Virus record (IMG/VR): IMGVR_UViG_3300036832_001373
Location: 1 to 64,000 of that record
Reading direction: 5' to 3' (one strand)
Length of the DNA stretch: 64,000 bases
From: a virus
Each line of letters starts with the position of its first letter. Within the stretch, counting starts at the first letter, position 1. The notes below the pieces were generated by a model that did not search any database, was not told the DNA's origin, and saw nothing but the letters and a program-made list of their open reading frames with translations. The translations under genes and the position numbers were made by a program. Below are positions 11,357 to 13,063 of this stretch, in pieces.

Positions 11357-13063
11357 ATAAAGCCGGATACAATAACAGACCTGAACCCCCTTTAGCGAGC
11401 CGATACCAGTAATAGACCTGTTGGAAGATAGCGAGCCGATGTTGGCCATAGACCCGATCAACGACAGCGAGCCGGAGTGGAAAATAGACCCGTTCATTGT
11501 TAGCGAGCCGACCCACGACAGAGACCCGGTCACTACTAGCGAGCTGAGAAGTCACAGAGACCCGAGCCCGAGGAGCGAGCCGTCAATATCTAGAAACCCG
11601 AAAACCCGAAGCGAGCCGGATGTACCTAGAGACCCGAAATCGTGCAGCGAGCCGACCTGATGAAGAGACCCGATGATCTCATAGCGAGCCGTGCCGTATA
11701 AGAGACCCGAAAGCGGTTAGCGAGTCGATGACACTAATAGATCCGTAGAGGAGGAGCGAGCCGGGTTTTCCAATAGATACGGAACCAAGTAGCGAGCCGA
11801 CAAGTCGAATATAGATCCGATGAGAGCAAGCGAGCCGACCTGATTCAGAGATCCGAACCGAGATAGCGAGCCGACGCTATGTATAGACCCGAAAGCGGTT
11901 AGCGAGTCGAGATCAGGAAGTAACCCGTCGACGACCAAACGAGCCGTTGCCACGAAGTGACCCGAGAGGTGAGAGCGAGCCGGAGCCAATAAGTAGACCC
12001 GTGCGTACATAGCGAGCCGAAGCGAAGAATAGACTCGTCTAATGCTAGCGAGCCGTACTTCCATATAGATCCGATGACCGACAGCGAGCCGATGTGTGGA
12101 AGAGACCCGAGTGAGTGTAGCGAGCCGTATATTTAGAGTGACCCGAATCAAAATAGCGAGCCGGAACGAGGAGGAGACCCGATGAGAATTAGCGAGCCGA
12201 ACAGTGACAGAGACCCGATGGTGACAAGCGAGCCGACCGAAAGAAGAGACCCGAGCTCCCGAAGCGAGCCGAAGTTCCACAGTGACCCGTTTGCGGATAG
12301 CGAGCCGTGTTCCACAATAGACTCGACGAGCAATAGCGAGCCGAGCGGTGAAGATGACCCGAAGTGATAAAGCGAGCCGAACTATCTTAGAGACCCGAGA
12401 TTCTCAAGCGAGCCGAGATCGGGAAGTGACCCGGATAGAAAGTAGCGAGCCGAAAAGGAATAAAGATTCGACATGTACAAGCGAGCCGATGCTATGAAGA
12501 GACCCGTAAGAAGCTAGTGAGCCGAAACGCTCAAGAGACCCGAAAAATAATAGCGAGCCGTGAGTTCGGAGAGACCCGAGGTACGACAGCGAGCCTAGAA
12601 TGGTGAATGACTCGATATAGCACAGCGAGCCGATGACTACCAAAGACCCGACGAGAAATAGCGAGCCGATGTCAGTTAGTGATACGTAACCTTGAAGCGA
12701 GCCGAGAAGCTCTAAGAGACCCCGGTGTCATGTAGCGAGCCGAAGGAAGGGAGAGACCCGTAATGTTTCAGCGAGCCGAAAGAGGTCATTGACCCGTTAT
12801 GCGAAAGCTAGCCGACCTGATTCAGTGACCCGGATCGACTTAGCGAGCCGTAATCGAAAATTGACCCGGTCAATAGTAGCGAGCCGAAAGACGCGATAGA
12901 ACCGGATAGTGATAGCTAGCCGTGGTGTAATAGTGACCCGAACACAGCTAGCGAGCCGAGGAACGGAAGTGACCCGATTAGAGTTAGCGAGCCGGAGCGA
13001 CGGAGAGACCCGTTCATGTCAAGCGAGCCGAGAAACGTGATAGACCCGATCTAGACTAGCGAG
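11357..13063 (+). repeat. TIGR-type dual-repeat guide-RNA array, 47 units of about 36 nt
   Basis: Alternating edge repeat AGCGAGCCG and loop repeat (mostly AGAGACCCG/ATAGACCCG/AGTGACCCG) separated by variable 9-nt (occasionally 10-11 nt) spacers; edge repeats at 11394, 11430, 11466 ... 13022, 13058. Confidence 0.93.

Follow-up and report, generated by a model that had tools for sequence, protein, structure and literature searches.

In-register reuse of guide halves in a phage TIGR array points to exchange between its own repeats

Transcripts of TIGR-Tas arrays are processed to 36-nt tigRNAs that guide DNA binding, and in the TasA class a C-terminal tyrosine/histidine (Y/H) loop processes the pre-tigRNA. 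According to Faure et al. (2025, PMC12045711), Tas reads its two spacers on opposite DNA strands, A on one and B on the other in the stretch adjacent to it. Both that study and the TIGRFinder survey (bioRxiv 10.64898/2026.09.09.750476) state that the emergence and expansion of the arrays and the origin of their spacers are unknown, with no adaptation machinery identified, and reuse of guide halves is described in neither. Box C/D sRNAs and snoRNAs, with their D and D' guides, resemble TIGR systems in their Nop-fold scaffold and in carrying two short guide segments per RNA (PMC12045711 and established knowledge), but each is a single gene that directs RNA methylation, not part of a tandem array, and its halves have separate targets, whereas TIGR halves jointly define one DNA site. 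Another likeness is found in CRISPR arrays, where exchange between short direct repeats duplicates, deletes and reorders spacers, in register and without adaptation machinery. Because a CRISPR spacer is a complete guide, repeat exchange there never creates a new specificity; by contrast, a TIGR exchange that ends on one side in the loop repeat puts two guide halves together in a new pair. In logic only, the gene conversion of pilE/pilS cassettes is similar, in that short tracts are copied non-reciprocally, new combinations arise and the donor is kept. The array described here differs from it in having no known dedicated machinery or silent donor loci and in its tracts of about 20-27 nt, bounded by 9-nt repeats.

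The window that we analysed is a 64-kb stretch of DNA, the first part of a 147.5-kb IMG/VR virus record estimated to be 70% complete. The original prediction had recognized a TIGR array in it, and this identification holds: a Tas-fold protein adjoins two alternating 9-nt repeats with 9-nt spacers in a 36-nt unit. The locus contains the following features.

10182-11309, plus strand: tas gene, 375 aa (P0001), TasA-like by sequence and fold matches, no nuclease domain
11321-11355, plus strand: conserved hairpin after the tas stop codon and ahead of the first unit of the array, with compensatory stem changes
11361-13063, plus strand: dual-repeat TIGR array, one 5'-truncated unit and 46 full units of 36-38 nt
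13069-13479, plus strand: Cys-rich ORF, 136 aa, inside an edge repeat; the related phage L053 has no such ORF at this place
13468-13503, plus strand: orphan complete unit GCCG-ATGAATGAA-AGTGACCCG-AATCCGCTG-AGCGA, separated from the array by the Cys-rich ORF

Judged by its sequence, the locus is a dual-repeat TIGR-TasA system carried by a phage. It resembles the dual-repeat TIGR-Tas systems of the TasA class (PMC12045711; TIGRFinder survey, bioRxiv 10.64898/2026.09.09.750476) in its TasH/TasR-fold Tas protein beside the array, its alternating 9-nt repeats and 9-nt spacers, its 36-nt period, its truncated edge start, the lack of a nuclease domain and its phage host. The array, at 47-48 units, far exceeds the 5-15 units that are usual, and the protein departs from the TasA class in escaping detection by the Pfam Nop model and in carrying a long charged coiled-coil insertion.

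Sequence searches of the PDB matched the Tas protein to TasH (E 1e-4) and to TasR (9mty, E 0.003). An AlphaFold model built from an alignment of 42 homologues had a mean pLDDT of 82, and its top 10 Foldseek matches in the PDB were all TasH or TasR complexes with tigRNA, each at probability 1.00. A Pfam search of the protein returned no Nop (PF01798), HNH or RuvC match. The model begins with a coiled-coil helix at residue 4 and has no N-terminal domain; lacking an N-terminal nuclease domain, the protein as modelled is TasA-like, without a recognizable nuclease domain. A C-terminal loop holds Y356, which does not vary among the 42 homologues, with H357 directly after it. The insertion in the coiled coil, long, largely disordered and rich in glutamate and lysine, covers about residues 53-82 (within a region of about 44-120); it is present in P0001-P0004, the closest group of Tas proteins (four, of about 373 aa; P0004 is 80% identical to the window protein), and absent from relatives of ~320 aa. 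The protein collection contained 185 Tas homologues. Elsewhere in the window, at about 55227-56108, a 438-aa ORF resembles RecA/UvsX (Pfam RecA, 43.7 bits), so that the phage probably encodes its own strand-exchange protein.

The array lies downstream of the nuclease-less Tas gene and alternates two distinct repeats, the edge repeat AGCGAGCCG and the loop repeat A[GT][AT]GACCCG. Exactly 36 nt is the length of 38 of the 46 full units, and the spacers are 9 nt long, with a few of 10-11 nt. A truncated edge repeat, AGCCG, forms the 5' end of the array at 11361, and half an edge repeat, AGCGAG (13058-13063), forms its 3' end. This last edge repeat is broken after AGCGAG by the Cys-rich ORF, and the missing GCCG and a complete unit resume at 13468-13503, terminating in AGCGA at 13503. 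The orphan unit is the sole match to the repeat pattern outside the array in the 147.5-kb record. In L053, the terminal AGCGA is joined directly to a homologue of the window ORF at 13524-14042, and the Cys-rich ORF is missing. Because the ORF splits an edge repeat and is absent from L053, the gene appears to be an insertion at the site of tigRNA processing.

Between tas and the array, the stems of the hairpin are GGGACGGGAG/CTCCCGTCCC in the window and GGAGAGGTAG/CTACCTCTCC in L053; since the stems differ and still pair, pairing has been kept by compensatory changes. Counterparts lie at about 5130-5165 in L053 and about 1760-1795 in L255, and no T run follows the window hairpin. The conserved hairpin could be a leader or processing element. 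An Rfam search of the locus gave no family match, and a promoter and terminator scan of it was uninformative. Upon examination of the 92 spacers (11394-13063), we noticed that the first letter is never C and is A in 58; the first spacer position behaves partly like repeat sequence. The ORFs within the array (11717-12280, minus strand; 11421-11660, plus strand; 12404-12643, minus strand) are by-products of stop-poor periodic sequence, one of which is annotated as a 187-aa gene in public assemblies.

Several halves of the guides in this array occur more than once. Every string and coordinate that had been reported for them is present in the sequence, as follows.

11703-11728, plus strand: identical tract with the first copy of AAAGCGGTT as spacer B (11710-11718), then the variant edge repeat AGCGAGTCG (11719-11727); partner A is TGCCGTATA
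11885-11910, plus strand: identical tract with the second copy of AAAGCGGTT as spacer B (11892-11900), then AGCGAGTCG (11901-11909); partner A is ACGCTATGT
11838-11846, plus strand: first copy of ACCTGATTC, spacer A; partner B is AACCGAGAT; identical tract 11833-11848
12815-12823, plus strand: second copy of ACCTGATTC, spacer A, with the variant edge repeat AGCTAGCCG before it; partner B is GATCGACTT; identical tract 12810-12825
11655-11663, plus strand: ACCTGATGA, spacer A, two mismatches from ACCTGATTC, 183 nt upstream of its first copy
11910-11918, plus strand: AGATCAGGA, spacer A, one mismatch from AGATCGGGA
12416-12424, plus strand: AGATCGGGA, spacer A, one mismatch from AGATCAGGA
12326-12334, plus strand: ACGAGCAAT, spacer B, one mismatch from ACGAGAAAT at 12651-12659, a pair missing from the original prediction

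The longest exact repeats are the 26-nt tract at 11703 and 11885 and the 16-nt tracts at 11833/12810 and 11646/11829. The 26-nt tract spans the end of the loop repeat, the B spacer AAAGCGGTT and the edge repeat AGCGAGTCG, followed by A; AGCGAGTCG has only two copies in the array, each after a copy of AAAGCGGTT. In 20,000 column permutations of the 92 spacers, 0.041 exact pairs were expected where 2 were observed (P = 0.0005), which bears out the claim that the reused 9-mers are true copies with new A/B partners. The near copies fared less well: their strings are there, but the counts within this array alone are close to chance, with 2 one-mismatch pairs against 1.0 expected and 13 two-mismatch pairs against 10.7 expected, neither significant. 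They plausibly gain credibility only through the excess of near-matches at the same position across related arrays.

We consider it likely, with a probability of about 0.7, that the array is altered at the DNA level, by exchange among the short repeats that it contains. The exchanges would arise either from misaligned recombination or from a switch of template as the phage replicates. The edge repeat would be the usual breakpoint, such that whole A-loop-B units are moved, duplicated, deleted or reordered. In a rarer event, the exchange would be bounded by a loop repeat on one side and by the edge repeat next to it on the other, and a tract of about 16-27 nt, made up of one 9-nt half and parts of the repeats around it, would be copied in register over another half. 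The donor unit would persist elsewhere, the recipient unit would become a new A/B pair, and the copied halves would later diverge through point mutation. Since A and B are read on adjacent stretches of opposite strands, a re-paired unit would specify a new 18-bp site. Both the enzymology of the exchange and the use of the new pairs are what we infer. The phage has the RecA/UvsX-like gene mentioned above as a possible agent of strand exchange, but at its right end the 26-nt tract has only 2-3 nt of homology past the T variant, which seems to fit template switching or a second event at least as well as, or better than, classical homologous recombination.

Two of the pairs in the window have nearly the same spacing, as ACCTGATGA and the first ACCTGATTC lie 183 nt apart and the two copies of AAAGCGGTT 182 nt, each equal to five units, which is suggestive (a rough estimate gives P about 0.04). 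Because the pairs are collinear at this offset, the two events are perhaps not independent, and both may go back to a single misalignment or a single old tandem duplication instead of two separate swaps. The duplication is the better of the competing explanations, though still an unlikely one. It holds that a five-unit block was once duplicated in tandem (11646-11828 and 11829-12010) and gave both collinear matches, with ACCTGAT.. at the start of each block, AAAGCGGTT and its variant edge two half-units on, and the other eight halves replaced or mutated. Such an origin would still be recombination between repeats, but as a whole-block event with turnover and no half-unit swap. It agrees with the spacing of the two matches (183 and 182 nt) and with the direct adjacency of the blocks, edge repeats are preferred breakpoints, and whole-unit and multi-unit duplicates occur in the relatives L192, L240, L251, L243 and L250. 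Against this, eight of the ten half-units of the two blocks have no similarity beyond chance, the further copy of ACCTGATTC at 12815 falls outside the blocks, and the match of ACCTGATGA to ACCTGATTC belongs to the two-mismatch class, which is close to chance in this array. Moreover, duplicates in the clade are mostly isolated halves (21 of the 31 exact pairs for which both neighbours could be scored). Whole-unit duplicates may themselves be under-represented within arrays, perhaps because they add nothing new and because longer direct repeats are easily deleted.

Related arrays add to the case for exchange between repeats. From 49 non-redundant related arrays, parsed by script and holding 2,199 halves, we counted pairs of similar halves within each locus and compared pairs at the same position (A-A or B-B) with pairs across positions (A-B). 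Exact same-position pairs numbered 37 against 0.4 expected, whereas exact cross-position pairs numbered 0 against 0.3. At one mismatch, the counts were 38 against 6.8 at the same position and 9 against 5.6 across positions; at two mismatches, 128 against 71 and 70 against 60; and at three mismatches, 498 against 431 and 402 against 382. Cross-position pairs in the 49 arrays thus stay at chance up to three mismatches, and the same-position excess rises with divergence, being about 37, 31, 57 and 67 pairs above expectation for 0, 1, 2 and 3 mismatches, respectively. Exact duplicates lie at most five units apart in 20 of 37 cases, compared with 30% of all same-position pairs. In isolated duplicates, identity never extends more than 1-3 nt beyond the flanking repeats, and a variant flanking repeat is common to the two copies in 6 of 22 cases, compared with a background of 5.2%. 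Strict register, local clustering, identity ending at the repeats and co-copied variants together indicate copying within the array. They point to duplicates that would have arisen by in-register copying of DNA, not by chance or repeated capture. A comparison with related arrays had been proposed, and in it the same pattern of reuse recurs across the 49 arrays, with boundaries in or at the flanking repeats. Some of this strict confinement to one position could be due to selection against hybrid repeats and not to the mechanism itself. Only a small share of the halves has a recognizable paralogue.

Three further counts from these arrays are less telling. Clusters of duplicates at a common offset show a modest excess (7 observed, 2.6 expected). 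Register-shifted shared 7-mers were found 43 times against 26 expected, at same and cross positions alike, a weak signal that depends on the null model. Mismatches in the one-mismatch pairs follow no clear pattern in position and divide into 19 transitions and 19 transversions. As separate observations, the A and B halves of single units are near copies at a 1-nt shift in L175 (2531/2550), L179 (4777/4795) and L244 (1781/1799), and such units would target near-palindromic sites.

The same counts bear on a second explanation, that the same 9-mers were captured independently from targets with a common half-site, such as a repeated motif next to variable sequence, so that reuse reflects target structure. 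Guides with A and B swapped are functional (PMC12045711), and unpolarized independent capture should consequently yield same- and cross-position pairs alike; this control rests on the equivalence of A and B, which is qualified by a report of asymmetric target engagement, according to which the two may not be fully equivalent (bioRxiv 10.64898/2026.08.11.744272). Capture would sit well with the stated ignorance of spacer origin (PMC12045711; bioRxiv 10.64898/2026.09.09.750476) and with a few 9-mers common to distant arrays in either position (11 cross-position matches), among them AGGTACGAC, which is a B spacer in the window and an A spacer in L053. However, such matches across loci and positions occur at about chance level, the exact duplicates within arrays are divided 37 to 0 despite the function of swapped guides (PMC12045711), copies are biased to nearby positions, and rare repeat variants are co-copied, including AGCGAGTCG in the window. 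Since no TIGR adaptation genes are known either, we regard independent capture as improbable.

All arrays compared derive from metagenome assemblies, and two independent assemblies of this locus were available. L052, a JGI contig from another sample, encodes an identical Tas protein and agrees with the window in the first 11 units of the array, the first AAAGCGGTT with AGCGAGTCG among them. It carries a 4-nt partial duplication of an edge repeat (L052 2640-2688, window 11750-11800) and ends in AGCGAGTCG as terminal repeat where the window has AGCGAGCCG; these differences may be heterogeneity of the array between samples or an error at the contig end. A Logan contig reproduces the 1,760-nt distance from tas to the next gene, and with it the length of the array, together with the same ORF call spanning the duplicates, so an assembly artefact seems unlikely. 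That the duplicates are chance matches or artefacts of assembling a repeat-rich region is therefore scarcely credible: the contig is indeed a short-read metagenome assembly and L052 differs by the 4-nt insertion and the last repeat, but chance is opposed by the permutation result for the window (P = 0.0005) and by the 37 exact same-position pairs of the clade, where 0.4 were expected, the unique flanks on both sides of each copy must exist in reads, and a second sample and a second assembler agree.

Returning to exchange between repeats as the preferred reading, we asked what is inherited together. When a half is shared between related phages, its loop neighbour is conserved and its edge neighbour changed in 63 cases, both are conserved in 19, both are changed in 17, and the loop neighbour alone is changed in 0. 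The class with both changed is close to chance, given the 11 cross-position matches between loci. Within arrays, co-copied neighbours are joined as A-loop-B in 25 cases and as B-edge-A in 1. Breakpoints are thus concentrated in the edge repeat, making the A-loop-B guide the inherited module, and with 63 edge-only against 0 loop-only breaks, units are inherited whole and re-pairing is rare. The original prediction had proposed combinatorial diversification by recombination between repeats; copying and the formation of new pairs stand, but free re-pairing is contradicted by this linkage of 63 to 0. The process accounts for the reassortment and the duplication and divergence of existing halves, not for the source of new 9-mers.

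The relatives also suggest a direction of copying in the window. The array of L053 and L054 (Tas 86% identical) comprises 28 units, with the repeats of the window but with spacers that differ almost throughout. L053 retains AAAGCGGTT as a B spacer beside GCACTATGT, a related partner, the counterpart of which in the window is the A spacer ACGCTATGT. Of the two units in the window, the one at 11865 is therefore probably older, and the one at 11683 would be the copy that was re-paired. L053 has half-duplicates of its own, ATCAATGAT and TGCATGCGC, each present twice, and L255 (Tas 70% identical) has one whole unit in common with the window, with one mismatch per half.

An alignment-based search recovered 80 further IMG/VR loci. 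A search for related loci with the single Tas protein as query found none, BLAST of the locus against the phage collection gave no match, and a scan of metagenome contigs for the repeat pattern gave nearly all single chance matches, L064 being the sole array among the matches listed. In L238, the unit formed by TTAAAGAAA and TTTACTGGA, which is common to L229, is present whole, and each of its halves also recurs there with another partner. Near-identical arrays differ by one whole unit (L236 and L237) or by a point mutation (L219 and L222), and in L233/L241, L200/L201 and L246/L254 the units in common are interspersed and reordered and the array ends conserved. We did not encounter polarized acquisition of spacers at a leader end: relatives match at both ends and their unique units are internal (L236/L238, L212/L245, L214/L218 and L233/L241). 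In contrast to the polarized leader-end addition of CRISPR, turnover in these arrays is internal, with conserved ends. A separate pattern is seen in L236 (6051/6232) and L238 (6591/6663), where each phage has two units with the same B half and the A halves are unchanged; these B halves are apparently shifted by 4 nt between the phages (TTTACTGGA in comparison with CTGGAAGGA and CTGGAATTA), which may be coincidence.

We infer that re-paired halves would provide new specificities. We searched the 147.5-kb record for self-targets in all four orientations of A and B, allowing gaps of 0-2 and, when one half matched exactly, up to two mismatches in its partner. For all units, this gave 2 weak matches, compared with 2.4 in partner-shuffled controls, and neither AAAGCGGTT nor ACCTGATTC was found elsewhere in the record. 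Real targets had been anticipated for both A/B combinations of a reused half; within the 147.5-kb record, none was found for either.

The reuse of halves is a real but minor clue to how TIGR arrays change. A further-reaching idea, which we consider doubtful, is that TIGR arrays capture no target spacers at all and that their diversity comes from in-array duplication, re-pairing and point mutation, followed by selection of useful A-B pairs. If true, the array would be a self-diversifying combinatorial library and not an acquired memory; the growing same-position excess, together with cross-position pairs at chance, appears compatible with such a library and does not demonstrate it. The A-B linkage between phages (63 to 0) suggests that pairs are selected as pairs, and such selection would indirectly point to real 18-bp targets for natural guides. 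For annotation and engineering, the comparison of same- and cross-position pairs is a simple statistic that is applicable to the thousands of catalogued TIGR arrays. For the biology of the family, the analysis offers testable rules: change at the DNA level and in register, breakpoints in edge repeats, occasional copying of halves, drift by point mutation and internal turnover.
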